Shown one piece after another: positions 41,332 to 63,990 of a stretch of DNA of 64,000 nucleotides (position 1 is the stretch's first letter; every line of letters starts with the position of its first letter). Source of the stretch: a virus (Duplodnaviria > Caudoviricetes); the IMG/VR virus record IMGVR_UViG_2974749469_000001, positions 3,528 through 67,527 of that record; one strand, written 5' to 3'. The translations under genes were made by a program, and so were the position numbers. The notes under the pieces were generated by a model. The model was not told where the DNA came from, searched no databases, and worked only from the letters and a program-made list of their open reading frames with translations.

Positions 41332-41786
41332 GCGCTCACGACCTGGCTGTCGGCGAGCGCCTCGATGCTCTGGCGGTAGTACCGGACCTGCTTCGGACCC
41401 AGCGGCCGGGTGCCGACGATCTTCCCCTCGCGCTCCCATCGCCGCAGCGTCGGCCGGGACACCCCCAGCTCCATCGCCGCGGTGTTGGCGTCGACGGTCT
41501 CGCGGAGCACCTGACGCAGCTTGCCCGACTTGTCCGGATCAATCTCGACCGGCTTGTCCTCCCAGCGGGTGTTCTCCCGACGCCGCGACAGCTCGCTGAC
41601 GATCTGGTCGTGGTTGTCGAGGATCTGGTCGAGGTAGACCCGGCGGTGATTACCGCTGGTCTGCGCGATCCGAAGACTCTTCATCCCCTCGATGACGGCC
41701 CGACGCAGGGTATAGTCGTGAACCCCGATCACCTCGGCGGCCTGCTCCAGACTGATGAGCACACCTCGGTTCTTCGTTCGCGCCAT
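41328..41786 (-). CDS. tandem helix-turn-helix DNA-binding protein (excisionase/MerR-like)
   Basis: SLEQAAEVIGVHDYTLRR and NTAAMELGVSRPTLRRWEREG. Confidence 0.82.
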   Translation of the reverse strand: MARTKNRGVLISLEQAAEVIGVHDYTLRRAVIEGMKSLRIAQTSGNHRRVYLDQILDNHDQIVSELSRRRENTRWEDKPVEIDPDKSGKLRQVLRETVDANTAAMELGVSRPTLRRWEREGKIVGTRPLGPKQVRYYRQSIEALADSQVVSA

Positions 41787-41806
41787 GACTCCCTCTTCTC
41801 GCTTGT

Positions 41807-42553
41807 TCAAGTTGACCTCAACCCTAGCATATCCCGCCTGTTCGCCTCGGCGAGCAGGGGCCACGCCTTGAAGATCTTCGTGCGTTGCTCACGCACCTTA
41901 CGGACGAACAGCAGCGCGTGTCGGTCGGCGTCCCGCGCGTGTCGGCCTCCCGGCACCCACATGTCCCAGAGCTTCAGCCGCTCATCGGTGATGGCGGTCT
42001 TGGCCTCGCTCGGCTGCTGACGGGTGATCGGGTAGGGAACGTTCTTCCCCTCCCACAGCAGGTAGTCGAGGATCGCGGTGATGCGCACCGGCGAGAGTGC
42101 GTCTCGCTTCTGGTTCTGGGTGCGCAGGATGAAGTCCTCGACCACGACGGTGCAGTTCAGCGCCTTAGCGTGCCGCTCGACGAGCTTCTCGCACAGGTGC
42201 GCACCGGCGGCCTCTCCCTCTTCCGACGCGCTCAGGTCGTACTGCGACGCCGCGGAACCGAGCTGGCCCGACGCCGCGCCGCAGTCGATCTCGCCGTGCC
42301 ACCAGTCGGTGATAACCTCGTGAGCCCGCACGGTCTTATCGAACAGGCGTTCGACGTCAAGGGTGAACACCGACCAGCCGGTCGTCCCGCCGGGGTCGAA
42401 CGCCACGAGGGTCACACCGCGCTCCATCCGCCGGGCGATCATCGCGTCGCTCAGCGCAGGCAGGCGTTCCTCCAGCGGGTCCGGGTATCCCTCGTCGGCA
42501 TGGAAGATGGCCCTCCGGTCGAACCAGTGTTCGGGAGTGTCGTGAGGCTTCAT
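41807..42553 (-). CDS. RuvC-like Holliday junction resolvase
   Basis: VAFDPGGTTGW, VVVEDF, HARDA. Confidence 0.8.
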   Translation of the reverse strand: MKPHDTPEHWFDRRAIFHADEGYPDPLEERLPALSDAMIARRMERGVTLVAFDPGGTTGWSVFTLDVERLFDKTVRAHEVITDWWHGEIDCGAASGQLGSAASQYDLSASEEGEAAGAHLCEKLVERHAKALNCTVVVEDFILRTQNQKRDALSPVRITAILDYLLWEGKNVPYPITRQQPSEAKTAITDERLKLWDMWVPGGRHARDADRHALLFVRKVREQRTKIFKAWPLLAEANRRDMLGLRST

Positions 42554-42774
42554 GGCTTCACCTCGTCGGCGGTCACGGAGACCCCCTGCTGGACCGATGG
42601 GGAGTTGAGATCCCAGACCACCCGATGGACGTTGTACGTGCGACCGTCCGCCTCTAGGCGCTCGCCGACGGCCGGAACCCGGAACCCGACCCCGACGGTG
42701 TCGTAGTGAGCGGTGATCATACGAGGTCCGTAGAGGGAGTTAAGCTGGTATCGGACAATGACTTTCGGCTTCAT
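42550..42774 (-). CDS. hypothetical protein
   Basis: Coupled ORF. Confidence 0.65.
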   Translation of the reverse strand: MKPKVIVRYQLNSLYGPRMITAHYDTVGVGFRVPAVGERLEADGRTYNVHRVVWDLNSPSVQQGVSVTADEVKP

Positions 42775-45700
42775 AGATCCTCCAATTCGATGAGACTGAC
42801 TTCCTCGGCCTGCACAGCGGAGCCGTGCCCGCCCCGGGCGATGCCGAGCACGTGGATGGCGGTGTTGGTCCCGACGTCGGCCAGCTCCTCGGCCAGATCG
42901 GGGTAGAGGAACCGGTGGACGTAGACGTGGACCTCGGTGCCGTCACCGTCTTCGGCGATGACCGTGGCCTTCGTCGAAATCTCCGGCTTGTCGACCTCCT
43001 GACGGAGCTGTTCGATCGTCTGGCCGGTGCGCTTGCGAAGGCCTTCGAGGTGGTCCTTGATCTTCACCTCGCGGATCAGGCCGATGAACACCACCCGGTC
43101 GCCGTCGCTGTCGGCGAGCAGGTCGGCCGACGTCGAGCCGCCGAGGAGCGCGAGATCACCGTCGGCGATTGCGGACTCGATGCTGTCGACGGCACGCGCG
43201 GCCCGGTTGATCCCGAACGGGTCCCGCGACTCGCACATCTGTTCGATCTTCGCGATGGTCTTGGCGCCGAGGCCCGGCACTCCCTGAGCGGGCTCGTCCG
43301 GCTTCGTCTTCCGGCCGGTCTTCGCCGCGACGTAGCGCATGTCAGCCCAGGTCTTGCCGAGTGCCTTGAAGTTGATCGGCTTGTCGGTCGGGGGAGGACC
43401 CACCTCGCGGTCGCGCCACTCCAGCATCTTCCGGCCGACCTTCTCGGCAATGCCGGGGATCTGGGTGAACCCAGCTCTCACGGCCTGCTCTGGCCCTCGT
43501 CGGGAGGGCTCCCACGTCAACTGGGACCAAACGAGGTGCGGACCCTGCACACTGATGCCATGTCGCGTTGCATCCTGCATGAGGCCCAGCGCCTTGTTCT
43601 CCTTCGGGTCGGTCTTGGCGTACCGCAGCGCCGCGGCGTAGAACTCGGTGGGGTGGTAGAGCTTCAGCCAGGCCAGCCAGTAGCCGACGACGGCGTAGCA
43701 GGCGGCGTGGGCGATGTTGAACAGGTAGCTCGATGACTTCGCCATGTAGTCCCACAGCTCTCGCGCGTCGGCTTCGGGCATCCCGATCTCGCGCTGCATT
43801 CCGTCGCGGAACTCCTCCCAGAAGGCCTCGAACGCACCACCCTGCTTCTTCTTCCCGATGATCCGGCGCAGCGCGCCGACCCGGTGCCCGGGCATCCCGG
43901 CGACGCGACCCATCCCCATCACCTGCTCCTGGTAGACCAGGCTGCCGTTGGTGTAGGCGAGCACTTCGTTGACCTCGGGGTACCCCCAGTCGCGCGGTTC
44001 CTCGCGGTCCATCTCGACACCCTCGTAGTGCGCGGTCTGGCCGGAGATGAGCGCGCCGGGCCGGGAGAGCGCGTTGATGTCGACGAGGTGCTGGAAGGTG
44101 AGTTTGGATCCGGCGAGGTTGTTGACGATCCCGCGGGTGGTCCGGCCGTCGAACTGGAAGATGCCGGTGAGGTCGCCCTTGTCGAAGATCTCCTCGAACA
44201 CCCGCTCGTCGTCGCGCGGGAGCGCGTACATCTCGGTCCAGCTCATCCCGATCCAGCCGAGGCAGTCCGAGATCAGGTCCAGGGTTTCCAGGCTCAGGAT
44301 GTCGAGTTTCAGCATCCCGAGGTACTCGGCGTCGCGCTTGTCGTAGGCGATACCTCGGCGGGTGACACCCTCCTTCGTCTCGGTGTAGATCGCGCACGTC
44401 TCAGCGATCGGCCGAGTCGAGATCACCAGCCCGGCGGCGTGGATGCCAAGCCCGCGGTAGTCGCCTTCGATCTCAGCGGCCATCTTCAGCTCGGGGTACT
44501 TCTTCACGATCTGCTTGGCCCGGTCGAACGTGGCGATCGCGTCGACGACGGAGAAGTCCTCGCGCGGGTCGCCGTCGTCCCGGTCGACGATGAGATCCTT
44601 CAGCTCGAAGACCTCGGAGAAGTCCGAGAGCTGGTGTGCGCGAGCGACATCCTTGATCGCCGACTTCCCGCGGTACCGGCTGTAGTTGGTGATCTTCGCG
44701 GTGCGTTCGGCGCCGTACTTCTCGGTGGCGTAGTCGAAGATCTCCTGTCGACGGCGGGACTCGAAGTCGATGTCGATGTCGGGGTCGTCCGGCCGCGACG
44801 GGTCGATGAAGCGCTCGAACTGCATGAGCGGGAACTCCATCGGGTCGATCTCGGTGATGCGGAGCAGGTAGCAGATCTCTGAACCGGCGGCCGAACCGCG
44901 GCCGGGCCCGACGCCGATGGGGTTCGGGTGGTCCTTGGCGAACCGGACGAGGTCGGCGGTGACCAGGAAGTAGTCGCAGAACCCCTTCTCTTCCAGCATT
45001 CCGAACTCGTAATGGATCTGGTCGAGGTACTCCTGGGTGCGGGTGTCCCAGCGCTCTGCGAACCGCGGATCGGTCTCCGCGCGGAACTCGATTCCGTCGT
45101 TGATCCACTGCTTCAGCCGGTCGGCCGCGCTCAACTGCTTGCCGCGGGAGACGAACACGACGCGCTCCGACTTCGGCAGCTCGACGGTGCAGCGGTCGGC
45201 GATCTCGCGCGCTCCGTCGAGTGCGGAGTCTGCCTCGGCATCGCTCAGGAGGCAGTCGGCGAGCTTCTGCCGGACAGCGTCGTCGGACTCGGGATAGGTA
45301 AGCCGGACGTCGTACTCCCAGTCGGCGTCCTGGGTCTCGATCGTGCCGCCGCGGTGCGCTGCGTGCAGCATCCGCTGGATGTGGTTCTGGTTCGGGTAGG
45401 GGTAGTGGACGTCGGCGGTGGCCACGAGCGGCACTCCGTCGGCGGCCGACACGTCGGCGAAGAACTGGTTCAGCAGCACGGTGCGATCCAGCTCGGGAAA
45501 CATCTGGACTTCGAGGTAGAACCGGTCGCCGTAGCACTTCACGTAGCGATGGATCAGCGCGCGGGTCTCGTCGACACTCTCGTCGTCCCAGTCCTCGCGC
45601 CGGTCACCGAGGCTCTTGCCGCCGAGCAGGGTGCAGGAGATCCACGAGTCGGCGCACCCGCTGGTCACGATGAGGCCCTTGGTCAGTTCGGGGTCGAGGA

Positions 45701-46052: not shown

Positions 46053-46102
46053 CAAGGTTTCCTCCGAAAGTTGCTCGAAAATCCGCTGGAATGGCTGAGA
46101 CC

Positions 46103-46131
46103 CAATGTAAGACTTGACGTCAAGAATGTCA
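46103..46131 (-). promoter_or_regulatory. leftward promoter TTGACA-17-TACATT with TTGACGTCAA (46114-46123) in the spacer
   Basis: Reverse complement reads TTGACA TTCTTGACGTCAAGTCT TACATT upstream of dnaE. Confidence 0.8.
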
Positions 46132-46377
46132 AGACCAACTCGCACCCCGAGAGCCGATCAGCCACTTCTTGAAGGTGATCATGTCGTGCTCCTCGGACCA
46201 CTTCCGCATCTCCTCGGGGTAATCCGAGCACCCGTCCTCCTCGCGCTCGATCTCCTGCCGGTAGCGCTCCTGGCGGTATTCGTCGACCAGGCGAGCATGG
46301 TGAATTGAGCACTGGACGTGGTCGGGGGTGCAGCGGAGGTGCCGCTCGATCACGCCGGATCTGTGCAGTCCGGGCAA
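46129..46377 (-). CDS. hypothetical protein
   Basis: 82 aa, CTPDH...CSIHH. Confidence 0.6.
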   Translation of the reverse strand: MPGLHRSGVIERHLRCTPDHVQCSIHHARLVDEYRQERYRQEIEREEDGCSDYPEEMRKWSEEHDMITFKKWLIGSRGASWS

Positions 46378-46856
46378 CCACCGCCGTCGCAGGTCGCGCA
46401 GGTGTGGTACTGCGCCTGGGTCCGGTGCGCGGGCAGCACCGGGAAGGCGATCTGCGCTTCGGCCTCGGCGTATGCGTCGAGCAGGCGATCCTGGGGAGTG
46501 TCGGTCATCAGCTCGTCGATCGCGGCGTGCAGCCGGTCGAACGGGATCGCCCCGCTGATGGTCGTCGTCGACTCCCCGCGCCGGACGAGCATGATCGTCG
46601 GCGTCGAGGAGACCATGTGCTTCTCCAGGAACATCCGCAGCTCGGGGGTGAAGGTGTTGTCAGGGTTCGGCAGCGGCGCACCGGCGAATCCGAGGTGTCG
46701 ACGACCCTTCGGGTATGCCTCGATCGCGCTCAGCATGTAGTCGAACAGGTGTTCGGTACGATCGCCGATCAGCAGCACCCAGCGGGTCCGGCCGGTTCGG
46801 CTCTCGACCTCCTCGATGACCTTGGGGTCGCGCAGGTCGAGGAAGTGGTAGGTCAT
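46350..46856 (-). CDS. thioredoxin-like fold protein with C-terminal CxxC-GGG-CxxC
   Basis: STPTIMLVRRGE...ISGA.P..RL; CATCDGGGCPDC. Confidence 0.6.
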   Translation of the reverse strand: MTYHFLDLRDPKVIEEVESRTGRTRWVLLIGDRTEHLFDYMLSAIEAYPKGRRHLGFAGAPLPNPDNTFTPELRMFLEKHMVSSTPTIMLVRRGESTTTISGAIPFDRLHAAIDELMTDTPQDRLLDAYAEAEAQIAFPVLPAHRTQAQYHTCATCDGGGCPDCTDPA

Positions 46857-46877
46857 GTGCAGGGCCTTTCAACGGGA

Positions 46878-46916
46878 GAAGCGGGTGGACCGACCCCTCA
46901 TCGGCCCACCCGCTTC
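46878..46916 (-). terminator. stem-loop downstream of the SSB gene
   Basis: GAAGCGGGTGG...CCACCCGCTTC. Confidence 0.6.
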
Positions 46917-46928
46917 GGTGGAGGTGTA

Positions 46929-47810
46929 TCAGAACGCCGGACGACGCTTCCGGCCAGCGGACGCGGCGGCGGCCTTCTTGGCAGGGGCCTTCTTCGGCTC
47001 CGGCTCGGGCTCGGGCTCCGGGTCGTCCTCGGGCTCGTCGTCGGGGTCGTAGACGACCTCTTCCTCCTCGACGTCGGCGTCGATGTCGACCGGTTCCGAA
47101 TCGTCCTCCTCGGGGTCCTCGACGACCTCCTCCTCGACGCTGTCCGCGTCGTCGTCGACCACCCCTTCCTCGATGTCGGCGTCGTCGACGTCGATGACCT
47201 CGGTGTCGTCGATGTCCACGTCATCATCGTCGACGGCGGTGCCCGGGACCTCGTGGTCGGCCGGGTGGACGTCGTTGATGCGCAGCGAGCGCACGTTCTC
47301 GACCTTCACCTTGCCGTCGGCGCCCTTGGACTTGCGCTTGTAGTTGTCGTCGCGAGCGGAGACGACGACCGGCAGGCCCTTGAACTTCTTGCCGGACACG
47401 ACGAGGTTGCCGATCTTCAGGATCTTCTCGCCCTTGTCGTCCATGATCGCGTCGCCACCCCAGAACTTCGAGCGCAGCGAGGTATCACCGGCGATCGCGT
47501 CGAGCAGCCGGTTGATCCGGCCGACGAACAGGTCGGCGTTCTCGTCGCCCATGCTCTCGGGGATCACGATGCGCTCGAAGATGGCGTAGCCGTTGTACTT
47601 CGAGACCGGATCGTCCTTCGGAGCGTCGAACTCGACGACCGCGACCAGCAGATCCTTGTCCTTGGCCTTGTTCGGCTTGATGGACAGGTTTCGCACTTTC
47701 GCGCGGTAGATGCCCCGCGGGGGCACCTCGCCGACGTACTGACTGAATCCGGCGGTGGCTTCGACCTTTGCGGCCTCCGCACCGATTTTCAGCTTGAGCT
47801 TTGTGGCCAT
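46929..47810 (-). CDS. ssDNA-binding protein-like, acidic tail then basic KKAP tail
   Basis: PPRGIYRAKV N-domain, D/E-rich run; next to Sak4-like and RecB-like genes. Confidence 0.7.
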   Translation of the reverse strand: MATKLKLKIGAEAAKVEATAGFSQYVGEVPPRGIYRAKVRNLSIKPNKAKDKDLLVAVVEFDAPKDDPVSKYNGYAIFERIVIPESMGDENADLFVGRINRLLDAIAGDTSLRSKFWGGDAIMDDKGEKILKIGNLVVSGKKFKGLPVVVSARDDNYKRKSKGADGKVKVENVRSLRINDVHPADHEVPGTAVDDDDVDIDDTEVIDVDDADIEEGVVDDDADSVEEEVVEDPEEDDSEPVDIDADVEEEEVVYDPDDEPEDDPEPEPEPEPKKAPAKKAAAASAGRKRRPAF

Positions 47811-47826
47811 TCTGGATTGTCTCCCT

Positions 47827-48606
47827 CTACTCCGAGCCGACGGCGTTCGACGACTCGATGATCTTCGTGATGTCGGCAAGCCCCTTGCCGACGGTCCGGC
47901 GGCCGAGAGCGTCGAAACGGTCCTTGGCCATCCACTTCTTGTTGGGTTGCCACTCGATGACGCGCATCGTCTGGACACCCTTCGTGGTCTTGACGGCGTC
48001 CATGTGCATGTAGCCGACCATGTGCATTTGAGCGGCGATCCAGTTCGCGACCTTGCCGTCGCGACCGTGGAAGTTCGGCATCCGCAGGCCTGGGTCGTCC
48101 TCGGCGAACATGGCGTGCGCGGTCCAGCAGACGTTCACCGGCAGGTCGTTGACCAGGGTGACGTAGCGCATGAGGCGCATCTGCTCCTCGCCGTACTCCT
48201 GGAGTTCGACCTTGTCGGGGTTGCGCTCATCGTCGGCCTCGACGTCGGCGTCGACGATGTCCCGGCGGATGTCGAGCTGGAGCTGTGTCCCGGTGTCAAT
48301 GCAGAGCCAGTCGAACGGGAACTTCGGGTCCCGGGTCGCGTCTTCGAGCCAGTTGTAGGCGTCGAGGAAGTTCGACCACTTCGGACAGCGCCAGACCTTC
48401 GAGTTGCCCGGGGCCTTCTTCGCCGAGATGGTGCCGTTCTCGATGCCGAGGATCAACGCCCGTTTCGCGCTGCCGAGGAAGCGGGTCTTGCCGATCCCCG
48501 GGTCCCCGTACAGCAGCATCGTGATGTTCTCGGTGTACTCCTGGATGTCGACGATGTCATCTGGGAGATCGAACCCCTTCAGATCGTCAGCAGTCGCCGT
48601 GGCCAT
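47827..48606 (-). CDS. AAA ATPase (Sak4-like recombinase)
   Basis: LLYGDPGIGKT, IDTGT, AKDR. Confidence 0.82.
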   Translation of the reverse strand: MATATADDLKGFDLPDDIVDIQEYTENITMLLYGDPGIGKTRFLGSAKRALILGIENGTISAKKAPGNSKVWRCPKWSNFLDAYNWLEDATRDPKFPFDWLCIDTGTQLQLDIRRDIVDADVEADDERNPDKVELQEYGEEQMRLMRYVTLVNDLPVNVCWTAHAMFAEDDPGLRMPNFHGRDGKVANWIAAQMHMVGYMHMDAVKTTKGVQTMRVIEWQPNKKWMAKDRFDALGRRTVGKGLADITKIIESSNAVGSE

Positions 48607-48656
48607 GTTCTCCTCTTGTCTGTGTTGACGTCAACCCTACCATATGGCGCCGGTGA

Positions 48657-49838
48657 TTAGAAGTCGCCGCGGCGTTCTTCGCGATGGGCCTCGTAGGGAT
48701 CGCGCACGTGATAGGCGACGGATTTGAGCAGCTCGGTGTCGCCGTCCTGCTCGTCGGCCAGGCACAGGTCGTAGAAGTCGCAGTCCCACGTGCAGTCGCG
48801 CGTCGGGTTCTTGTACAGCGGCAACAGGCCCTCGCGCATGGCGTTCATCGTCTGGATCTCGTCGGCGATGTGCTGAATCTGCTTCCGGCGCTCCTTCGAG
48901 GTCCGGTAGACCGGCTCCCGATGGAACCGCGGGCTCGGTTGCTTGTTGGAGACGTCGCCGAGCACCGTGAGTCCGTGCTCGTCGGCCTCCTCGATGAGAT
49001 CGGGCAGCTTCGACTTCTGAAGCTCCTTCTCCATCTCCGGCCCGATCGTCTCGACCCAGAGCTTCTCGCCCGATGCGGCCACCTCGCGCTTGGCGTGGTA
49101 CTCCATCAGCGCGGCGACGTAGTGTTTCTTCGTCGGCTTGTTCGTCGCGCGGCCCTGTTCGTCGACCGGCCGCTCATCCGGCGGGGCTTTCATCAGGAAG
49201 TTGTAGAGGATCCCCGACAGCCGCTCCCGGCCGGTGATCACTCCCTGACGCCGCAGGACGTTGTCGGCGACGGCCCAGTACCCGCCAGCCTGGTCGTCGA
49301 GCGGGAGGTGGTTGGTCTTGATCGAGCGGGCTGTCTTGTGGTCCCAGAGCCAGATCTTGCCGGTGCCGAGGTTGCGCGCGACGATGTCGAAGGTGCCGTG
49401 GAACTTGGCCACCGGGGTTCGATCGGCCGAGTTCCGGGGGATGCGGACACCGAAGGGCTGCTCGGGAGAGAGCACCTCCCACTCCTCGTCCTGACCGAAC
49501 TCAACGAGGTAGTTCTCCAGCATCGCCTCGCCGACGGCCTCGGCATCGAGCACGACGTGCTCCTGGTCGGCGTAGAGCGAGCCGGACATGATCTCGACCC
49601 GGACCAGCTCCATGACCCCCTGGCAGTACTCCTTCCAGGTCTCGATCGGATCGCGGCCGCGAGTGGTGCCCGGGATGTACCAGTGCTCGAAGGCGAGATG
49701 GATGCCGGTGCCGAACCACAGCGGGAGCTTCTTCCGGTTCGACTCCAGACCCTCGCGCCAGGCCCACCACCAGCGTTGCGGGCACCGCTTGAAGTCCTTG
49801 CGCTCGGACCCGCGGAGCAGGGGCAGGTCAGAGGTCAT
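48657..49838 (-). CDS. Cas4/RecB-like PD-(D/E)XK exonuclease
   Basis: CPQRWW, FGTGIH, GTFD...WDHKT, C.WDCDFYDLC. Confidence 0.85.
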   Translation of the reverse strand: MTSDLPLLRGSERKDFKRCPQRWWWAWREGLESNRKKLPLWFGTGIHLAFEHWYIPGTTRGRDPIETWKEYCQGVMELVRVEIMSGSLYADQEHVVLDAEAVGEAMLENYLVEFGQDEEWEVLSPEQPFGVRIPRNSADRTPVAKFHGTFDIVARNLGTGKIWLWDHKTARSIKTNHLPLDDQAGGYWAVADNVLRRQGVITGRERLSGILYNFLMKAPPDERPVDEQGRATNKPTKKHYVAALMEYHAKREVAASGEKLWVETIGPEMEKELQKSKLPDLIEEADEHGLTVLGDVSNKQPSPRFHREPVYRTSKERRKQIQHIADEIQTMNAMREGLLPLYKNPTRDCTWDCDFYDLCLADEQDGDTELLKSVAYHVRDPYEAHREERRGDF

Positions 49839-50178
49839 CGGCGATCTTCTTCAGCTCCCCGCGGGCCTGCGCGAGCGCGGCGCGGTATCGGATCTTCGCC
49901 GACTCCAGGCGCAAGTACGTCAGGTTGTTCATCTTCGGGTCACCGTCATCGATCAGGACCAGGTCCCCGAGGTTGAACGCCGGGTAGTCGTCCCCGTTCA
50001 GCTCCAGATCCGGAATCCGGGTCCAGGTAGCGGGGTCGATCCGATAGGCCCTGTCTTGCCACCAGAGATGCGACGGCGTTCCGGGGTGCAGCTCGTCGAG
50101 ATAGAGCATCTCGATCGTCGGCCACTCGAACTTGGGCCAGTGGCGGTTGTAGAGCGCGGGGATGCTGGAGTCAGTCAT
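49828..50178 (-). CDS. hypothetical protein
   Basis: Coupled ORF. Confidence 0.65.
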   Translation of the reverse strand: MTDSSIPALYNRHWPKFEWPTIEMLYLDELHPGTPSHLWWQDRAYRIDPATWTRIPDLELNGDDYPAFNLGDLVLIDDGDPKMNNLTYLRLESAKIRYRAALAQARGELKKIADDL

Positions 50179-50503
50179 CGTTCACCAGCCAGGTCTCGAC
50201 CACAATCATCACGATGCGGTCCTTGTTCAGCGCGAACACGGTCCCCTTCTCGCTGGAGTTCCCGTCCGCGATCGGGCCGATGTTGTACCAGTCGTCGTCC
50301 TGAGTGGTTCCGTCGACCTTCAGCGGGAGGACGTAGAGCAGACCCGGGACCGGGGTCCGCGGCTCCACCTCGTGCCCGATGACCTTGAAATGGTGTCCCC
50401 CAACACCGTTTTCGATGGTGATGGTCGAGAGGAGCGGCGAGACCCGGCCGATCAAGCCGGTGCTCCACTCCTGAACGCGAGGAGACAGGGACTTCTTGCC
50501 CAT
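50171..50503 (-). CDS. hypothetical protein
   Basis: ATG 50503 after GGAAAGGA; start uncertain. Confidence 0.6.
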   Translation of the reverse strand: MGKKSLSPRVQEWSTGLIGRVSPLLSTITIENGVGGHHFKVIGHEVEPRTPVPGLLYVLPLKVDGTTQDDDWYNIGPIADGNSSEKGTVFALNKDRIVMIVVETWLVNDD

Positions 50504-50540
50504 GTTAGTTTTCCTTTCCACAGCAGCGTCGTCGACGGTA

Positions 50541-50717
50541 TCAGGTCATCCGGACAGGGGTGGGGTTCTCCCGACCGCAGTCCAAGCAGACCCTGACCCC
50601 GAGATGCACGACCCCGGCGGGCTCACCGTTCACCGTCGCGGGGTTCGTGCGCAGGTACTTCACCTGGGTTCGGGGGTGCTTGCAGCGCCGGGATGCGCGG
50701 CGCTCGGCCCGGTTCAC
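50541..50717 (-). CDS. 58-aa Zn-ribbon-like protein (CKH...CLDC)
   Basis: Hand-translated, GTGA overlap; not in the ORF track. Confidence 0.6.
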   Translation of the reverse strand: MNRAERRASRRCKHPRTQVKYLRTNPATVNGEPAGVVHLGVRVCLDCGRENPTPVRMT

Positions 50718-51103
50718 TGCGCCACCGGCGGGAACGCGCCCCGGAACACGTGCCAGACGAGCCCGCCGTCCCGGATCGTCGCGATGTGGGACTCCATCGC
50801 CATGTAGACGTTCTCGTGCGTGTGGTCCCGAGTCCCCTCGATGAGCTGCACACAGCCGCGGATCCGCTCCTCGTGCAGCGGGTGGCCAGTGCCGCGGATC
50901 TCGATCGGAACGTACTCGAACGAGTCCGGGTGGGTTTCGACGATCATCCAGATGTCGATCATGGATACCGGGACTTGGCTGCCGATCGGGAACCGCTTCG
51001 TGGAGCTGAGATCAGCGGACAGGATGCCGACGACCGTCGCCCCTTCGACCTTGATCTGCTGGCTGTCCGTGATGGGGATGGTGAGCTTCCAGATGGTTCT
51101 CAT
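50714..51103 (-). CDS. conserved phage hypothetical protein
   Basis: TIWKLTIP...IRGTGH...LVWHVF pattern. Confidence 0.7.
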   Translation of the reverse strand: MRTIWKLTIPITDSQQIKVEGATVVGILSADLSSTKRFPIGSQVPVSMIDIWMIVETHPDSFEYVPIEIRGTGHPLHEERIRGCVQLIEGTRDHTHENVYMAMESHIATIRDGGLVWHVFRGAFPPVAQ

Positions 51104-51438
51104 TTGTCTAATCCTTCAGGGAGGGAAAGGGTTTCGGCGAGCTGCTCGACTCTTTCGGCCAGCTCGGGGCATTGTTCGCGAAGCCGCTCGATCGTGGTCT
51201 CGATGTCCCCGAAGAGCCCGGTGTTTCGCTTCCCGGGCTCTCCGTTCTTCTTGATCATGGGGCCACTGACCGTGAAATGTGTGAATCGCCGGATCGGGTC
51301 GCTCGGGTTCCGCTTCCGGTAGGTCAACCGACTCACGTGGAGGCGTTCAGGGATCAGGTCGCATCCGTGGTTGCCTCGAATCCGGGGCGCGTCGTAGACC
51401 CGGCATTCCGTGCTGGTGAGGTGTGTCTCGATCTTCAT
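51100..51438 (-). CDS. hypothetical protein
   Basis: ATG 51438, ATGA overlap with the helicase stop. Confidence 0.65.
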   Translation of the reverse strand: MKIETHLTSTECRVYDAPRIRGNHGCDLIPERLHVSRLTYRKRNPSDPIRRFTHFTVSGPMIKKNGEPGKRNTGLFGDIETTIERLREQCPELAERVEQLAETLSLPEGLDK

Positions 51439-53492
51439 GCGGCCTTCTCTCGGGTGATAGGGGTGAGCAGCGAGCGCACGAAGTTGACGCCGCGCTGCCC
51501 GTCGATGATGAGCTTGGTCAGTCGCTCGCGGCCGCCGGAGACGAACGCGATGTTCTCCTCGACGGTCTCCAGCGTGCGGAGATAGTGGATCGTGACCTGG
51601 TGCAGCCGGGAGACGCGGTGAATCCGGTCCTCCACCTGCTCCTGGTCGTCGGGAATCCACGTCTCGTCGAGGAACACGAGGTCGTCGGCCGCGTCGAGGG
51701 TCAGCGACACACCCCCGGCGTTGGTGTTGAGCAGGAACACCCGCGGGCCTCCGGCCTCCTGCCAGCGGTCCTTGTTCTCCTTCCGCTGGTGCTGCTTCAC
51801 CCCGCCGGTGATCTTCAGGACCGGGATGCCGAGCTTCACCAGCTCGCGCTCGTACATGTCGAGGATCGCGGTGAATTGGCTGGCCACGACGACCTTGCGC
51901 TCCTGGCCTTCCTCGTCGGGTTCCATCGAGGTGTGCTTGTTGATCCCGAGGCCGTCGAGGAACTCCACGAGCCAGTCGAACTTCACCGACGGCATCTTCG
52001 GCAGGAAGCGGTAGGCCTCCTCGCCCTCGGCGTCGAGGTAGGTCTCGACGTCGCCGTGGCAGATCGCGAACTGCTTCAGCCGGACCAGTTCGGCGAGCAC
52101 GCCGTTGGCGGTCAGCACGCCGGACTCCAGGATCGTCTCGGCCTCGTCGCGGATCTCGGCGTAGGCCTTCGCCTGCTTCGGGCTCATCGTGAGCCAGTGG
52201 CCGATCGGGCTGTGCTCGTCGGTGGTGCCGTCGTCGTAGGGCAGCGCGGTCCCGGCGTAGAGCTTCGGCGGGAGTTCCGGGTAGACCTCGGCCTTGGTGC
52301 GGCGCAGCATGATCGGAGCGATGTCCTCGTAGAACATCTTCACCTTCGTCTCGTCGAGACCGGCGATCTCCATGTTCGACTTCTGGTCCTTGATGTCGCC
52401 GAGCACGTGGAACCACTGCTGAGCCCAGGACCAGTAGGCGTGGTACTTGTCCGGATAGAGCCAGTTCAGGGTGCCCCAGAGGTTCTCCGGCTTCCCGCGG
52501 AACGGCGTGCCCGAGAGAGCGATCTTCAGGCCGTGCTCGGCGACCGGGATCATGCCCGCACCGGCGCGCACCTGGGTCTGGCTCTGGGGAGTCGCGGAGT
52601 GGCAGATCATGAATCGATGGCTCTCGTCGGCGACGAAGGCGCTCCACTCCCGCTCAAAGAGCATGGGGTACTTGCGATCCCACCAGCCGGGCTCCTTGAA
52701 CATGCCCATCTTGCCGGTCCGTTTGTGCTTGCGCCGGACCAGGCTCGGCTTCACCCACTCCGCGCGCAGCATCTCGATGTTCACGATGACCCACCGGCGC
52801 CGGTCGCCCGGCGGCGGGCCGAGACGGTCGAGGATGTTCCGGCGCGCGGGTCCGGTGCCCATCACCGCGATGACCTCGTCGCCGGGCACCCAGGTCTCCA
52901 GCTCGTCGGGCCAGGTGGTTGCCACGGCCGCCGAAGGAGCCGCGACGAGGATGTCTCCGACGATCCCTGAGCTGATCACCGCGCCGAGGGTCTGGAGCGT
53001 CTTGCCCAGGCCCGGCTGGTCAGCCAGGAGACCGCGGCGGGTGTGGGTGAGGAAGGCGATCCCGGCGCGTTGGTATGCGCGAGCCAGCTCGGCGATCTTC
53101 GGTGCGTGCTCGGCTACGGCCGGATCCAGTTCGGCGTCGCTGCTCGCGCTGGAGAAGTTCTTGATGTTGCCGAGCCGGTCGCTCTCCTCCCACGACCACT
53201 CGATGAGCCCCTCGGACGTCAGCAGGTTCTCACCGAAGACCCGGCGCAGCTCCTTGCAGTTCGTCAAGGTCAGCGGGAGAGAGCCGCCACCGGCGTCGAC
53301 ACCGACGGCACCCAGCTCTTTCAGCAGCTCACGGTATCGCTTGCTTCGAGCGGTGCCGGTCGGCCACCAGACGTCGATGGTGGAAGCGGAAGTGTCGTCA
53401 TCGGCGAGTTCGACCCAGACGTGTCCGTCTCGCAGAGCGGCGATTCGCTCGGCGGCTGCCGGACTGTCGGATTCGAGTTCGATGGCTCCCAC
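51435..53492 (-). CDS. SNF2-family DNA helicase
   Basis: LADQPGLGKT, VADESH, LSGTP, QVEDRIHR; GTG 53492. Confidence 0.9.
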   Translation of the reverse strand: MGAIELESDSPAAAERIAALRDGHVWVELADDDTSASTIDVWWPTGTARSKRYRELLKELGAVGVDAGGGSLPLTLTNCKELRRVFGENLLTSEGLIEWSWEESDRLGNIKNFSSASSDAELDPAVAEHAPKIAELARAYQRAGIAFLTHTRRGLLADQPGLGKTLQTLGAVISSGIVGDILVAAPSAAVATTWPDELETWVPGDEVIAVMGTGPARRNILDRLGPPPGDRRRWVIVNIEMLRAEWVKPSLVRRKHKRTGKMGMFKEPGWWDRKYPMLFEREWSAFVADESHRFMICHSATPQSQTQVRAGAGMIPVAEHGLKIALSGTPFRGKPENLWGTLNWLYPDKYHAYWSWAQQWFHVLGDIKDQKSNMEIAGLDETKVKMFYEDIAPIMLRRTKAEVYPELPPKLYAGTALPYDDGTTDEHSPIGHWLTMSPKQAKAYAEIRDEAETILESGVLTANGVLAELVRLKQFAICHGDVETYLDAEGEEAYRFLPKMPSVKFDWLVEFLDGLGINKHTSMEPDEEGQERKVVVASQFTAILDMYERELVKLGIPVLKITGGVKQHQRKENKDRWQEAGGPRVFLLNTNAGGVSLTLDAADDLVFLDETWIPDDQEQVEDRIHRVSRLHQVTIHYLRTLETVEENIAFVSGGRERLTKLIIDGQRGVNFVRSLLTPITREKAA

Positions 53493-53944
53493 TGGATCTC
53501 CCCGTCGTTCATGACCTCGAACAGGTGTTCGAGCTTTCGGATGTAGCTTTTCTTGCTCTCGGCGCCGGTGAACTGGAGGCCTGCCCAGATCCCGTTCAGC
53601 CGGGTGATCTCGTGTGCGGTCTCGATTCCTCGGCGTGCGCACAGTTGCCGGACCGGACACGACTCGCAGATCCGCATGGCCATCCGGTCCTGCTCTCGCA
53701 GTTCCTCGCGACCCTCGGGACCGGTGCGCTGGCGCTCCTGCATGTCCGGGATGAAGGCGTCGCCGAGCCCGCCGCACTGCGCGTCGGCGAGCCAGTCCTG
53801 GTGCTCGTCGGGCTCCGGCGGGATCACGAATACGGCGGCCGGTCGCGGTGGTCCGGAGGCCGGTTTCGGCTGGCCTTTGGCTGGTCGGGGGCCGTTCAGG
53901 ACGTTCGTCCCTCGGATGACGAGGGAGCCTCGACGGACCTTCAC
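53321..53944 (-). CDS. WhiB family transcription factor (2)
   Basis: AQC...CESCPVRQLC plus NGIWAG. Confidence 0.8.
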   Translation of the reverse strand: MKVRRGSLVIRGTNVLNGPRPAKGQPKPASGPPRPAAVFVIPPEPDEHQDWLADAQCGGLGDAFIPDMQERQRTGPEGREELREQDRMAMRICESCPVRQLCARRGIETAHEITRLNGIWAGLQFTGAESKKSYIRKLEHLFEVMNDGEIQWEPSNSNPTVRQPPSESPLCETDTSGSNSPMTTLPLPPSTSGGRPAPLEASDTVSC

Positions 53945-54105
53945 TCCTCGTCCATCCCGACGAACGCGGGCTCGCTGCGCTCGTGTTCGGAGTGGATGGG
54001 CACTCCGACCTCGGGATACCGGTTCTTGGCCTCCTGCTCGCTCTCGGCGCGCACGGAGTAGGTGGTGGTCTTGGTCTCCTGGACCTCGATCAAATACGTC
54101 TTCAC
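53941..54105 (-). CDS. small hypothetical protein
   Basis: YSVRAESEQEA motif; GTG 54105. Confidence 0.65.
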   Translation of the reverse strand: MKTYLIEVQETKTTTYSVRAESEQEAKNRYPEVGVPIHSEHERSEPAFVGMDEE

Positions 54106-54287
54106 TGGGTCTCCTTTGGGACAGGTTTCTCGACGATCCACTGTCGAGACATGCCGATCTGGTGGCACTTGTCGCACCCCTTGCCCGGTCGGTATCCGAA
54201 CCCCGAGAACACCATGACGTCGATCAGCTCTCCGGTGTGACCGCAGTTCGAGCACTGGCCGTGTGGAACGGCGACCAGATCGGACAC
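54102..54287 (-). CDS. small Zn-finger protein (CSNC...CDKC)
   Basis: Cys pairs; coupled. Confidence 0.65.
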   Translation of the reverse strand: MSDLVAVPHGQCSNCGHTGELIDVMVFSGFGYRPGKGCDKCHQIGMSRQWIVEKPVPKETQ

Positions 54288-54330
54288 GGATGATCCTCTC
54301 GTGCAGGGGTGACAGCCACGGTAGCGCGAG

Positions 54331-54456
54331 CTACAGGTGGTAGAAGTGGTTCGGGCTGACCAGGTAGTAGAACGACGGGATCCAGAGCAAGAAGCCGCCG
54401 AAGAGGACGTGCAGCACGGCCGAGTGACCGTGCTGCACGCGGGTGTAGTGGCTCAC
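54331..54456 (-). CDS. 41-aa membrane peptide (MSHYTRVQHGHSAVLHVLFGGFLLWIPSFYYLVSPNHFYHL)
   Basis: Hand-translated; GTGA overlap; not in the ORF track. Confidence 0.75.
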   Translation of the reverse strand: MSHYTRVQHGHSAVLHVLFGGFLLWIPSFYYLVSPNHFYHL

Positions 54457-54779
54457 GACTCGTCGTCCGTGTCGGCCGGTTCCTCGTCGACGGGCTCCTC
54501 GTCGGTGTCGTCGTCGAAGTAGGTCGGCGCCTCGTAGGTGTAGTCCGGGCCGGTGCGGGGAAGGTCGCCCATGTTCACCGGATCGGTGTTCGCGCCACCC
54601 CCGATGATGTCACCGTTGGTCGAGACGATCGGGGGCGGACACGGCGCCGAGCCGGTCGCGGTCTCGATCTGGCAGGGTCGGGCCGGAGCAGCGTCGGCGG
54701 GACCGGCCAGCACGGCGGCGATCGGGCCGAGCACGAAGACGGCGGCGGCGAGCAAGTAGATGGCGATGCGGGTTTTCAT
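54453..54779 (-). CDS. secreted/membrane-anchored protein
   Basis: Signal-peptide-like N-terminus, acidic tail. Confidence 0.75.
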   Translation of the reverse strand: MKTRIAIYLLAAAVFVLGPIAAVLAGPADAAPARPCQIETATGSAPCPPPIVSTNGDIIGGGANTDPVNMGDLPRTGPDYTYEAPTYFDDDTDEEPVDEEPADTDDES

Positions 54780-54821
54780 AGTGTCCTCCTGGACATTTCG
54801 GTGTGTCGGTCGTACTTATTC

Positions 54822-54850
54822 AGTGTAAGACTTGACGTCAATCAAGTCAA
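54822..54850 (-). promoter_or_regulatory. leftward promoter TTGACT-17-TACACT with TTGACGTCAA (54832-54841) in the spacer
   Basis: Reverse complement reads TTGACT TGATTGACGTCAAGTCT TACACT. Confidence 0.8.
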
Positions 54851-55182
54851 GCATTGGCGGCCTTTCCGTCCTTCCAGAACGGCTTGGCCCGTTCCACTTC
54901 GTGCCAGATTTTGATCCCCTGTAGCACCTCGATCGGCATCGCGTCGATAATCTCGCGGACCTTCTTGTTGGTGCCGACCCCTCGCTGACCGAGAAAACCG
55001 AGGAAGGCTCGGATGTCGTCGCTGTAGGCCTTTTCGAGCCCTCGACGCTCGATCTCTTCGGAGATCCCGGTGAGCACCATGTGCTCGACCGTCCCGGCGA
55101 CGTGCGCGTCCGGATCCTCGGTCAAGCTCTGCTGGAGGACGTTGAGTGCCTCGTCGTCGAGCGAGGTGTAGTTGCTGGTCAT
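54847..55182 (-). CDS. hypothetical protein
   Basis: Coupled ORF. Confidence 0.7.
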   Translation of the reverse strand: MTSNYTSLDDEALNVLQQSLTEDPDAHVAGTVEHMVLTGISEEIERRGLEKAYSDDIRAFLGFLGQRGVGTNKKVREIIDAMPIEVLQGIKIWHEVERAKPFWKDGKAANA

Positions 55183-55646
55183 CGGAGCACCGCCGACTGC
55201 GTGCCATGGTTCTGGTTGTCGACGACCCGGTCCTCGGTGACGAAGGTCTGGTCGAGGATGACGTCTCGGCCATAGAGGGTGATCAGGTCGTAGTGCCGGA
55301 ACGAGTACTCCTCGGCCGCACCGGCACCGACGTTCAGGTGGATCTCGCTGCCGTCCATGCTGATCTGGCGCAGCTCGGCGATCACGATCTTGACCGACAT
55401 CGAGTCGTCGCCGAAGCGCTTCGGGAAGCGGATGTACCGGCCGATGTCGCGGGCCATCAGCTCGCAGGCGTAGACCTGGACGGCGTTGTCGCCGAGCGAG
55501 CGCGCCGGTTCCTGGCGGGCGACCCAGCCACTACTCCGAGTGGTTGCCGCGGCTAACGTGACCGTCGAGTTCGGCCCGTCGAGGTTGTCCATCATGTTCA
55601 GTTCGTAGGCCATCCGGTCCTGGTCAGCCTTCTTCTTGCGTGCCAT
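55179..55646 (-). CDS. hypothetical protein
   Basis: 155 aa ORF. Confidence 0.7.
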   Translation of the reverse strand: MARKKKADQDRMAYELNMMDNLDGPNSTVTLAAATTRSSGWVARQEPARSLGDNAVQVYACELMARDIGRYIRFPKRFGDDSMSVKIVIAELRQISMDGSEIHLNVGAGAAEEYSFRHYDLITLYGRDVILDQTFVTEDRVVDNQNHGTQSAVLR

Positions 55647-55649
55647 GTG

Positions 55650-56675
55650 TCAGCCGATCTTTTTGATGCGAGCGACCGCGACGGAACGGAAGCCGCCGCC
55701 GGTCTGGATGAAGTGGAGGATGCGCAGGTCTTCACCGTTCTCCTCCGGGTCGAAATCCGCGGGAGTGATGTGCGGCGGGTACTTCTCAGCCGCGCCGTCG
55801 ACGATCGCCGAGTCCAGCGCGCCGGACAGCGAGTTGAGCCACGAGATCTCGACCTTGTTGTTGGTCTTCCGGTTCACCCCGAGCTTGGTCAGGATCTCTG
55901 TCGTGCTCAGCGGAGAGGCCACGGCCGACCAGTTCCGGTGCGGGTTCGTGTGCTGTTGACGGACCGCGGCGTAGGTGTCCTGCTGGCTCCACGTCGGGTG
56001 GACGGCGTCCTTCGGCTTCGCCTTCTCCGCGGCGGCCTGATGACCCATGGCGTCTTTCGCCACGGCGCCGGGATCGGCTTCAGGCACGATCCCGAAGTGC
56101 TCGGGGACGGTGCGCTGCTCCAGATGGGCGGCACTCTCGTCCTCCATGGGTGTCAGACCGAAACGGTCGGCCAGGTCGTCGATGTCCTCCTGGCTCATAT
56201 GGGCGGCACTCGCGTCGTCGGTGTCCGTATGGGCGGCATCAGTGGGCGGCACGTCCTGGTGGGCGGCACTATGGGCGGCACTGGTGGGCGGCACTCGCGC
56301 GCTGTCCACCTCTCCCATGTCCTCTTCGGGGGCAACGTCATCGGCATCACCGCTCGTGTCGGCAAGGGCCACCACGCGGAACTCGTTCTCGATCACCTCG
56401 CGCACGTCACCGCTGTCGGGGTCTAGTACGCGCGTCACGCCGTCGTTGCCGGTGTAGCTGACCTGGTCACGATCCTTGTCCGGGTCGATCGCGTAGAAGG
56501 CCTTCAGCTCCTCCTGGTACTCCGCATCCAGCTCGCGGCGCAGGGTCACGAAGCCGAACTTGCGATTGACCTTCGGCGCGACGACAGGCTTCCAGCCGTA
56601 GTTCTTGGCGTGGGCCGTGATCTGCTCAGCGAGATCGAGGGCATCCGCAGCTTCCTGCGACATTTCTTGGGGCAT
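55650..56675 (-). CDS. hypothetical protein with AAH-containing repeats; first gene of the leftward operon
   Basis: AAGGTGG RBS; internal SAAH/DAAH repeats. Confidence 0.75.
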   Translation of the reverse strand: MPQEMSQEAADALDLAEQITAHAKNYGWKPVVAPKVNRKFGFVTLRRELDAEYQEELKAFYAIDPDKDRDQVSYTGNDGVTRVLDPDSGDVREVIENEFRVVALADTSGDADDVAPEEDMGEVDSARVPPTSAAHSAAHQDVPPTDAAHTDTDDASAAHMSQEDIDDLADRFGLTPMEDESAAHLEQRTVPEHFGIVPEADPGAVAKDAMGHQAAAEKAKPKDAVHPTWSQQDTYAAVRQQHTNPHRNWSAVASPLSTTEILTKLGVNRKTNNKVEISWLNSLSGALDSAIVDGAAEKYPPHITPADFDPEENGEDLRILHFIQTGGGFRSVAVARIKKIG

Positions 56676-56811
56676 TTTTCCACCTTGTTATCGGGTAATA
56701 CCTGCATATATAACGGCGAAATCGGGTAATCGGCTGTACCGGGGTACCGGGGGTGGCGCGGCGCGGGGTGCGCGGCGGGGCCTGGCGTGCGGGTCGCGTG
56801 GGTCGCTGCTG

Positions 56812-56880
56812 TCGAATGTGCGTGCGATCGAAAGTCTGTTCGATGTGATCGAAAGCCTGTTCGATCGAACGTGTGTTCGA
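56812..56880. promoter_or_regulatory. array of four LexA (SOS)-box-like sites
   Basis: TCGAAT-GTGC-GTGCGA 56812-27, TCGAAA-GTCT-GTTCGA 56828-43, TCGAAA-GCCT-GTTCGA 56849-64, TCGAAC-GTGT-GTTCGA 56865-80 versus actinobacterial consensus TCGAAC-N4-GTTCGA. Confidence 0.75.
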
Positions 56881-57011
56881 TGCCGGTCACTCTGTCGCCG
56901 TACTCCGTCCCGGTGGACGTTCACCGCTAGGCCGCGGTGGCTTCCTGCTCTGACCGGTGCGCGCTAACCCTGTCGCCCCGCTTCGCCGCTATGTACTTTT
57001 CAACTGCCATC

Positions 57012-57041
57012 AATGTACCGGTTGACGTCAACCGGTGTCAA
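57012..57041 (-). promoter_or_regulatory. leftward promoter TTGACA-18-TACATT containing the 20-bp palindrome ACCGGTTGACGTCAACCGGT (57017-57036)
   Basis: Read directly. Confidence 0.75.
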
Positions 57042-57171
57042 GCCTGGAGATCCGATCTCGTCGGGCCGGGTGTCCGGCCGCCGTGCCTGCTGTGCTCATG
57101 GCCCACACCCTACGGCATGTCAGCGCTGACACGCAACCCCTACATGCTCCAGCCGTGCCCGTAGGCGTGGC

Positions 57172-57201
57172 TTGACGTCAACCCTCACATGTGGTTACTG
57201 T
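57172..57201 (+). promoter_or_regulatory. rightward promoter TTGACG-18-TACTGT; -35 lies within TTGACGTCAA
   Basis: Read directly; upstream of ATG 57250. Confidence 0.7.
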
Positions 57202-57249
57202 GCTCTCACCGGGCCGGAAACGCTGGCCCGCAACACGAAAGGCCACACC

Positions 57250-57651
57250 ATGAGCTACCGGAAGGTGTACGCACCCGACGACGCCGAGATGATGACCGAA
57301 GCGCTGGAGCGCTTGCGGGAAATCCTTCCCCCGGGCAGTACCGTTGTGACGATCGTCAAGCATGTCACGTCGTCGGGTATGGGCCGGACGATTCAGCCGG
57401 TCACGGTGTACAACGGCGTCGTGTTCGATCTGACCGGCTACGTCGCCCGTGTCGTCGGGTGGAAAGTCGACACCGACCGCGGCGGCGTCTATGTCCAGGG
57501 TTGCGGTATGGATATGGGGTTTCACCTCGTCTACAGCGTGGCCCGGACGATTTACGGCCACCTCACACCCGAACAGATCCGCCGCTACAGCATCAATCCC
57601 GCGGCCAACACGACAGACCCCGGCTACCTGCTCACTCATCGGGGGATCTGA
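57250..57651 (+). CDS. conserved phage early protein (GCGMDMGFHLVY motif)
   Basis: CGAAAGG RBS; recognisable motif of unknown function. Confidence 0.8.
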   Translation: MSYRKVYAPDDAEMMTEALERLREILPPGSTVVTIVKHVTSSGMGRTIQPVTVYNGVVFDLTGYVARVVGWKVDTDRGGVYVQGCGMDMGFHLVYSVARTIYGHLTPEQIRRYSINPAANTTDPGYLLTHRGI

Positions 57652-63202: not shown

Positions 63203-63319
63203 TGTTGTGTGCGTGGCGGCCATCTGACGGCCGGTGTCATGTGCTCTCGTCGTCGCGGCGGCGTCTCGGCGGGTGTGAGGGTAGGGGTGTCCAGGGATAG
63301 GGGTCTCTCAGGGCACTCG

Positions 63320-63655
63320 AATATGCGTTCGATGAAATTTTGAAACGTTTCAATTTTCTGCCATAGGGAAGGCCTAGGGGATATGTATATGAATGAAAAA
63401 TTTATTTGTGATTTGTGAGGATTTATTTATGTGTGCGCAGATGGGTATATGTGGGGATATATAAGGGTATGGGGTAGGGGTCCCATATATGGGTATATGT
63501 GAGCAATTGATTAATATATGCATATCTATTTATATATTCATAATAAATGTTGAGAGAATAAATTATTGAAACGTTTCAATTGACGCCAATAGATACATGC
63601 ACATGCATTGATTGATATGTACATTCCCCATTCATTCATTCATCAATATGACCAT
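63320..63655. other. AT-rich non-coding island with two TTGAAACGTTTCAA palindromes
   Basis: Sharp GC drop; palindromes at 63340-63353 and 63566-63579. Confidence 0.8.
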
Positions 63656-63990
63656 GGGGGTGGGGGTGTCCAGCGCTGTAATCCGTTGCGACGGCGATAC
63701 ATAGGGGCATGGCATGGCATCGATGGATGTGTGCGCATCGATCGGCGGGTGTGCAGCGGTGCGACGAGATCGGTTGTGTACCTGCACATGTGGCGTGGCG
63801 TGTGACTCGTGGGACATGGCCGTATTGGCGTCTCAGATGGCCGTGTGTGGCGTGTGTTGTGCTCGTGGCGGGTCGGTGTGGATCTCGGCGTACGGCGGCG
63901 TGTGCGTGGCTCTGAGCTGGCAGTATGGCGTGGCGTGGACGACGTACACCCCGGGGGTACACCCCTCCCCCGGCCTGACGACCGGGGGCC

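Follow-up and report, generated by a model that had tools for sequence, protein, structure and literature searches.

We analysed a stretch of 64,000 nucleotides (hereafter the window) from the genome of a tailed phage (Duplodnaviria; Caudoviricetes; IMG/VR record IMGVR_UViG_2974749469_000001, positions 3,528 to 67,527), in which four copies of a LexA-type box, the operator motif of the SOS response to DNA damage, form an array at positions 56812-56880. Gene calls carried over from phage Turuncu divide the window into two arms, a long structural one read rightward and a leftward one (37772-56675), the products of the latter including a Prim-Pol/D5 helicase, a DnaE-like polymerase, an SNF2 helicase, an AAA_24 recombinase, a Cas4-like nuclease and a RuvC-like protein, together with two WhiB-like proteins and one HTH_17 (MerR-like) protein. 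The arms are separated by a divergent region of 570 bp, beyond which small rightward genes begin at ~57250, and the array falls within this region, in the leader of the first leftward gene.

The four 16-bp boxes, of the form TCGAAC-N4-GTTCGA, are arranged as two abutting pairs separated by a 5-bp gap, and are read on the minus strand in the order D, C, gap, B, A (Table 1). All of them fit the 16-bp LexA operator palindrome, a consensus established in mycobacteria (PMC3381160); both the coordinates and the mismatch counts given in an earlier note on this DNA, made from the letters alone, were borne out. Small plus-strand open reading frames are called over the array by some annotators. We rejected a coding reading because no reading frame is kept, the boxes being phased at 16 bp and the distance from pair to pair being 21 bp here and 20 bp in GRU1.

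Table 1. Position of the boxes, leader segments and first leftward genes in the window, and of box arrays in unrelated viral contigs (last four rows, coordinates of each contig).
Feature	Coordinates	Strand	Sequence	Remarks
Predicted leftward promoter (P_L)	57012..57041	minus	TTGACA-18-TACATT	TTGACGTCAA palindrome in spacer
Leader segment, predicted start to array	56881..57005	minus		~124 nt; holds conserved element GGCGACAGGGTTAGCGCGC
Box D	56865..56880		TCGAACGTGTGTTCGA	perfect; nearest promoter
Box C	56849..56864		TCGAAAGCCTGTTCGA	1 mismatch; abuts box D
Box B	56828..56843		TCGAAAGTCTGTTCGA	1 mismatch; abuts box A
Box A	56812..56827		TCGAATGTGCGTGCGA	2 mismatches; promoter-distal; weakest and least conserved box
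Leader segment, array to start codon	56676..56811	minus		136 nt; GC-rich variable stretch, GTACC repeats, AT-rich stretch, ribosome-binding site
First gene downstream of array	55650..56675	minus		341 amino acids; PHROG 12059 (unknown-function family)
Second gene of first leftward unit	55179..55646	minus		155 amino acids; PHROG 14599
Single box	63317..63332			one mismatch; non-coding, border of right-end AT-rich island; conserved in Turuncu and GTE5
Single box	53517..53532			perfect; 25 bp upstream of SNF2 helicase start (GTG 53492), within WhiB-like gene
Single box	46741..46756			one mismatch; inside gene annotated as thioredoxin in Turuncu, which has the box too
Single box	43231..43246		TCGCACATCTGTTCGA	one mismatch; inside DnaE-like polymerase gene; also in Turuncu
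Single box	42519..42534			one mismatch; 19-34 nt inside RuvC-like gene; absent from Turuncu
Single box	42339..42354			perfect; inside RuvC-like gene; present in Turuncu
Single box	34914			one mismatch; rightward arm
Array in contig L030	3385-3450
Array in contig L031	2110-2175
Arrays in contig L033	191-249; 4186-4217
Array in contig L034	571-602

The region was aligned among eight phages that represent at least three genera (Gruunavirus, Skysandvirus and Foxborovirus; two of the eight are without genus assignment here). Boxes C and D are present in every one of them and, within these two boxes, 22 of 24 half-site columns are invariant as compared with 1 of 8 spacer columns, the figure for the other leader columns being 49 of 267; conserved half-sites and variable spacers are thus found across genera. 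Box B is kept in Gruunavirus and Skysandvirus and is absent from GTE8, NatB6 and one further relative (L027), and box A is degenerate in another (L028) and a closer match to the consensus in GRU1 and Ennea.

The number of boxes at the array site varies among relatives, from four in Gruunavirus and Skysandvirus and three in Foxborovirus and other CR-type contigs, to two abutting boxes in a metagenomic relative whose first gene is 35% identical (L069), one in Pleakleyvirus (Fury) and a single perfect box in two metagenomic relatives with a first gene 44% identical (L067 and L068). Rhodococcus phages Maselop and ChewyVIII, Nocardia phage NC1 and one more metagenomic relative (L066) have none. In box-bearing relatives, even those with one box, the position of the array relative to the leftward promoter and to the start codon is fixed. 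As judged from these comparisons, the array is an old feature, held at one place and variable in dose, and it is spread through a whole subfamily of Gordonia phages.

The earlier note had placed a leftward promoter at 57012-57041, some 330 nt ahead of the first replication-block gene, and our analysis agrees with it: a promoter-like site (P_L) was found there, with a -35/-10 block conserved in 8 of 8 aligned phages, and the leader from the predicted transcription start to the ATG at 56675 measures ~330 nt. The array begins 131 nt past the predicted -10 and ends 136 nt ahead of the start codon, lying ~125-195 nt downstream of the predicted P_L (about +124 to +193); no -10-like hexamer was seen by eye inside it. 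The palindrome TTGACGTCAA in the P_L spacer occurs in 9 copies in the window versus 0 expected, mostly at gene boundaries (positions 3412, 26669, 46114, 48625, 54832, 57022, 57172, 59545 and 61384). These nine copies make the predicted P_L site one member of a phage promoter family: TTGACGTCAA marks a set of promoters or operators to which the predicted internal promoters of the leftward arm also belong.

Other elements of the leader were also noticed. The conserved element GGCGACAGGGTTAGCGCGC (plus-strand 56959-56977) has 14 of 19 positions invariant among the eight aligned phages, and a half-copy of it, GGCGACAGAG, sits closer to the array. On the other side of the array, GTACC direct repeats (GTACCGGG GTACCGGG, 56734-56753) are located just upstream of the gp82-like start. 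Repeats of this GTAC type are found family-wide at the same place (L042-L045 and L066-L069), box-less phages included, and many more of them are present in Rhodococcus phage ChewyVIII; a different protein may bind them, or they may belong to an origin.

We then compared the number of boxes with that expected by chance. The window holds 3 perfect boxes (0.01 expected), 10 boxes with at most one mismatch (0.41 expected) and 17 with at most two (5.04 expected), and no dinucleotide-preserving shuffle reached any of these counts. Codon-aware shuffles were added because all coding boxes share a single reading frame (xTC GAA Cxx xxG TTC GAx). In the leftward genes, 5 boxes with at most one mismatch were counted versus 1.06 expected by the synonymous-codon shuffle and 0.15 by the codon-order shuffle, and none of 300 codon-aware shuffles reached 5; an excess is therefore seen with both types of shuffle, in the leftward genes for the codon-aware ones. 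The rightward genes (44.5 kb) showed no significant excess, with 1 such box versus ~0.2 expected. Besides the array, the earlier note had listed boxes at 42339, 42519, 46741, 53517 and 63317, all five of which are present, although those at 43231 and 34914 were overlooked. The latter is in the rightward arm, in which the manual scan of the earlier note had found none; as a single one-mismatch site it is consistent with chance.

The whole genome contains 11 boxes with at most one mismatch. One of these is outside the window, at genome bases 29-44 of the extreme left end (TCGAAAACCCGTTCGA, one mismatch, 78 nt before the start of gene 1), and both Turuncu and a Skysandvirus have it at exactly the same coordinate, the latter with a different spacer. 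The box before the helicase start is common to Gruunavirus and Skysandvirus, again with differing spacers, and the Skysandvirus genome G305 carries a perfect box with a changed spacer at a genome coordinate similar to that of the box at 42339, a match judged by coordinate that would place a box in or near the RuvC-like gene in both genera. The box at 46741 belongs to the coding-box excess of the leftward genes. As a group the dispersed boxes are more lineage-specific than the array: Foxborovirus-type genomes carry little besides the array, and one relative (G306) has no boxes beyond its three array boxes. Two further observations concern the surroundings of these single boxes. The AT-rich island near the right end (63333-63673, ~350 bp, 27-42% GC in a genome of 65% GC) contains two TTGAAACGTTTCAA copies (63340-63353 and 63566-63579) and many short GGGTATAT-type repeats, and is a candidate origin or packaging region. 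At 42554-42770, ~217 bp separate the RuvC-like and DnaE-like genes, which in Turuncu overlap.

TCGAAC(N4)GTTCGA is the LexA consensus of M. tuberculosis, defined by mutagenesis and chromatin immunoprecipitation sequencing (PMC3381160), and the LexA consensus of S. venezuelae nearly matches the phage motif (PMC9380542). The lexA/Rv2719c region of M. tuberculosis has four potential boxes, and LexA of this organism also binds inside coding sequence (PMC3381160). When 185,579 species, each represented by one genome, were scanned for exact matches to a pair of abutting boxes, 12 loci were returned, all of them in Actinomycetota, and at least 10 of the 12 adjoin lexA or its divergent LysM gene; this bacterial lexA/LysM divergent region is the counterpart of M. 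tuberculosis lexA/Rv2719c. When the lexA upstream regions of 20 sampled Actinomycetes were inspected (one of them from Mycolicibacterium, LexA 97% identical), a box with at most one mismatch was found in 17 and an abutting pair in 11. Seven genomes flagged as unpublished (G008, G016, G025, G033, G037, G044 and G264), although counted in a tally of LexA matches, contributed no region and support none of the claims made here. The spacers also resemble each other: the first spacer position is a purine in 83% of phage boxes (n = 32) and in 90% of bacterial lexA-region boxes (n = 68), and A occupies the second position in just 5% of the boxes of either origin. Many Actinomycetes lexA/LysM regions have a third box, TCGAACAnnTGTTTGA, 50-70 bp from the abutting pair and nearer lexA.

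Moreover, arrays of two to five abutting LexA-type boxes are carried by unrelated viral contigs of 49% and 36% GC, which have no protein similarity to the phage. In L030 and L031 two abutting pairs are 2 bp apart, and one of the two kinds of contig has the two-plus-two layout of the phage; in the low-GC contig L031 HNH and small-terminase genes are close to the array, which is at a divergent junction, a context that is uninformative. The sharing of such arrays by two unrelated kinds of viral contig suggests a host factor that is widely conserved. Neither a LexA DNA-binding domain nor an S24 domain was detected in any frame of the phage. Host LexA would be the most economical binder of the array, and we consider this assignment probable. 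The half-site footprint, the native format of the lexA operator and the lack of a phage LexA homologue strongly support the reading of these sites as LexA-type SOS boxes under selection; as for the role that the earlier note gives to LexA, occupancy of the sites by the host protein is what we infer.

A phage-encoded dimeric regulator might instead bind the palindromes, its specificity coinciding with or copying the SOS box, in the manner of gp6 of the Betatectivirus GIL01. About three quarters of the scanned early proteins have no recognisable family, TTGACGTCAA represents another network of palindromes, so that phage-encoded site-specific regulators probably exist, and an HTH_17/MerR-like protein is encoded in the leftward arm. 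However, this protein, the sole recognisable helix-turn-helix protein, is only 47-52% identical across genera whose boxes are unchanged and whose half-sites are invariant, and it is also encoded by the box-less Rhodococcus phages. Neither LexA_DNA_bind nor S24 was found, as said above, and the motif, the abutting format and the spacer preferences are those of bacterial lexA operators, the motif being shared moreover by the unrelated viral contigs. We consequently regard a phage-encoded binder as unlikely.

With host LexA as the probable binder, we propose with roughly even confidence that the array consists of host LexA operators which, placed in a transcribed leader, gate the first leftward (replication/recombination) unit. 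In undamaged Gordonia, LexA dimers would sit on the abutting 16-bp sites, just as at the host lexA/LysM operator, and would hinder RNA polymerase arriving from P_L (57041-57012), lowering the production of the 341-amino-acid WYL-like protein, of the next gene and of any read-through. The array being far downstream of the predicted start, a roadblock to the elongating polymerase would be the likeliest mode of action, possibly with looping. RecA activation, either by DNA damage or by the infection itself, would lead to LexA cleavage and lift the block; alternatively, multiplying phage genomes would outnumber or dilute LexA. Within 5 minutes of infection by phage WC1, the SOS and recombination genes of Rhodococcus erythropolis are up (PMC10986025), and this rise in a related host makes relief by infection itself plausible. 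LexA binding, roadblock repression and SOS relief are the three steps that we infer; what the data show directly is the motif itself, with its excess, conservation and location, and its resemblance to native LexA operators. The single boxes down the arm (the one before the helicase and those in the RuvC-, DnaE- and thioredoxin-like genes) might brake later units; the coding boxes, at least one in each later leftward unit, could be weaker brakes or coincidence. The RecA-like gene of the phage belongs to the AAA_24 family and is no true RecA, and we therefore dropped the idea that its product cleaves LexA.

The reach of such a gate would be limited. The next TTGACGTCAA motif after the 155-amino-acid gene is at 54832-54841, and in view of the internal promoters predicted in the leftward arm the array would directly govern mainly the 341-amino-acid gene and its neighbour; the LexA gate on the replication operon suggested in the earlier note needs correcting in this respect. 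The 341-amino-acid protein has no Pfam family, and neither a profile search of PDB sequences nor Foldseek gave a match (in the case of Foldseek, a significant one). Many metagenomic contigs encode homologues of it, as do 72 phage records (Gordonia, Rhodococcus and Nocardia). The AlphaFold model (mean predicted local distance difference test score 72.5) displays two folded domains with a disordered Pro/Ala/His-rich linker between them, and the C-terminal domain gives a middling match to a WYL/Sm-like fold, which we take as a lead rather than as an assignment. In PafBC and DriD, which act in damage responses independent of LexA, the WYL domain is a sensor of single-stranded DNA. If the gate operates, a WYL-like protein as first gated product could reinforce the damage signal, given what this fold senses elsewhere.

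Several points weigh against LexA gating as proposed. The predicted -35, -10 and start site are all free of overlap with the array (the promoter itself being a prediction), and LexA operators typically, although not obligatorily, overlap or directly follow the promoter, which the array does not; the gating claim is in this respect weaker than the binding claim, since from within the leader it needs a roadblock or looping. Internal TTGACGTCAA promoters at ~54840, ~48630 and ~46120 may allow much of the replication arm to bypass P_L. Use of the motif by Gordonia LexA is extrapolated from Mycobacterium, Mycolicibacterium, Streptomyces and other Actinomycetes, and the many small phage proteins without a recognisable fold could hide a DNA-binding protein. 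The existence of box-less Rhodococcus, Nocardia and metagenomic relatives implies that the array is dispensable for the genome plan. Finally, a lytic phage letting a host repressor throttle its own replication genes is a situation that needs an explanation beyond sequence.

The boxes could also act as a LexA sponge, the 11-12 sites per replicating genome titrating LexA and turning host SOS functions on, with only a secondary effect on phage transcription. The many sites per genome, some of them in coding DNA and at both genome ends without an obvious operator role, are in line with titration, as is the number of coding boxes above the synonymous-codon expectation. Nevertheless, it is the array, at its single site in the leader, that is conserved; the dispersed boxes are lineage-specific, and G306 has array boxes only. 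The single box of some relatives would be useless for titration, nor would titration require the distances to P_L and to the start codon to be fixed. The choice between gate and sponge left by the earlier note is undecided by the sequence, but the array keeps its place between promoter and first gene even when reduced to one box, which favours action in cis over pure titration, and we find a sponge quite unlikely. An origin or structural element independent of LexA (iterons for an initiator, or a hairpin or cruciform in the DNA or RNA of the leader) is very improbable: there are four repeats, tandem like iterons, in a large intergenic region beside replication genes, each box is able to fold into a 6-bp hairpin and the leader RNA folds slightly better than shuffles (z = -1.95), yet the repeats are palindromic and match a host-type operator, the motif is also found as single copies in coding DNA and at lexA promoters of bacteria, no Rfam family matched 56500-57300 at expectation values up to 1, the array is ~100 nt from the nearest AT-rich stretch, with the GTAC repeats and the right-end AT island being better origin candidates, and the stems are invariant in sequence without co-variation and the loops vary, which argues for sequence-specific recognition of duplex DNA.

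Regarding the life style of the phage, searches for tyrosine and serine recombinases and for ParA-type ATPases gave no hit at expectation values up to 1, and no integrase, ParA or S24 repressor is annotated in Turuncu. The lack of a recombinase, a ParA-type ATPase and an S24 repressor points to a phage that is lytic by gene content, in keeping with the "apparently lytic" of the earlier note and with the description of its relative GTE8 as apparently obligately lytic (PMC4524720). A lytic lineage using LexA as a developmental gate, with the first unit and perhaps, by way of the dispersed boxes, the whole arm throttled until the host SOS response, is a more ambitious reading, which we offer tentatively and consider doubtful. 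If it were true, the LexA gate would represent a reversible hold of infection that requires no repressor of the phage, a delay of the pseudolysogeny type in undamaged or dormant Gordonia.

If LexA does sit on the leader, a whole subfamily of Gordonia phages would couple its replication module to the DNA-damage state of the host. This subfamily includes phages proposed for the control of foam in wastewater plants. The consequences of such a coupling would extend to burst timing, to how efficiently stressed or dormant cells are infected and to the response to DNA-damaging agents; it would, moreover, provide an easily testable model of a lytic actinobacterial phage reading a stress regulator of its host, the natural relatives with 0, 1, 2, 3 or 4 boxes being a ready-made comparison series. 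LexA control is known in temperate phages, plasmids and islands, and is outside the usual picture of lytic development. In a non-exhaustive literature search we found no prior description of LexA or SOS boxes for phages of Gordonia, for mycobacteriophages or for virulent phages, which agrees with what had been stated earlier for virulent actinophages.

Among known systems, the array is close to the boxes of the actinobacterial lexA/LysM (Rv2719c) region, with which it shares the 16-bp palindrome, the clustering of boxes in one intergenic region, the abutting phasing and the spacer preferences; it differs in being carried by a phage genome, where it belongs to the leader of a replication unit and is far from the predicted promoter on its downstream side, and in that LexA is its presumed binder. 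Mobile elements that read the SOS state via LexA sites include the colicin operons, with paired LexA boxes, coliphage 186 (tum) and CTXphi (rstA). Colicin operators use two adjoining boxes for tight control. In all these cases the sites overlap or directly follow the promoter, and serve the induction of a dormant element or a suicidal release, not an ongoing lytic cycle. The stoperators of Cluster A mycobacteriophages resemble the proposed mode of action, being many operator-like sites within transcription units that block the elongating polymerase, as the dispersed leftward boxes could also do. They are asymmetric sites of 13-14 bp bound by the temperate phage's own immunity repressor, whereas the phage boxes are palindromic and match a host repressor.

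The nearest parallel among viruses is GIL01. It has no repressor of its own and carries several LexA boxes before early/replication genes, so that the host SOS response decides expression (PMC4551915, PMC6182141), and LexA together with the co-repressor gp7 represses the early promoter of this plasmid prophage (PMC4551915). The phage likewise has boxes before early/replication genes and no CI-type repressor. GIL01 differs in being a temperate linear plasmid with boxes overlapping P1, the co-repressor gp7 and the LexA homologue gp6. In the phage we found no temperate life style with maintenance functions: it has no LexA homologue, integrase or ParA, its relatives are reported to be lytic, and its boxes are in the leader, in a four-site layout copying the host lexA operator and spread subfamily-wide. 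Co-option of LexA by mobile elements is thus known, and what sets the proposed case apart is its combination with a lytic gene content, a site in the leader, a four-site layout like that of lexA and a spread through the subfamily.
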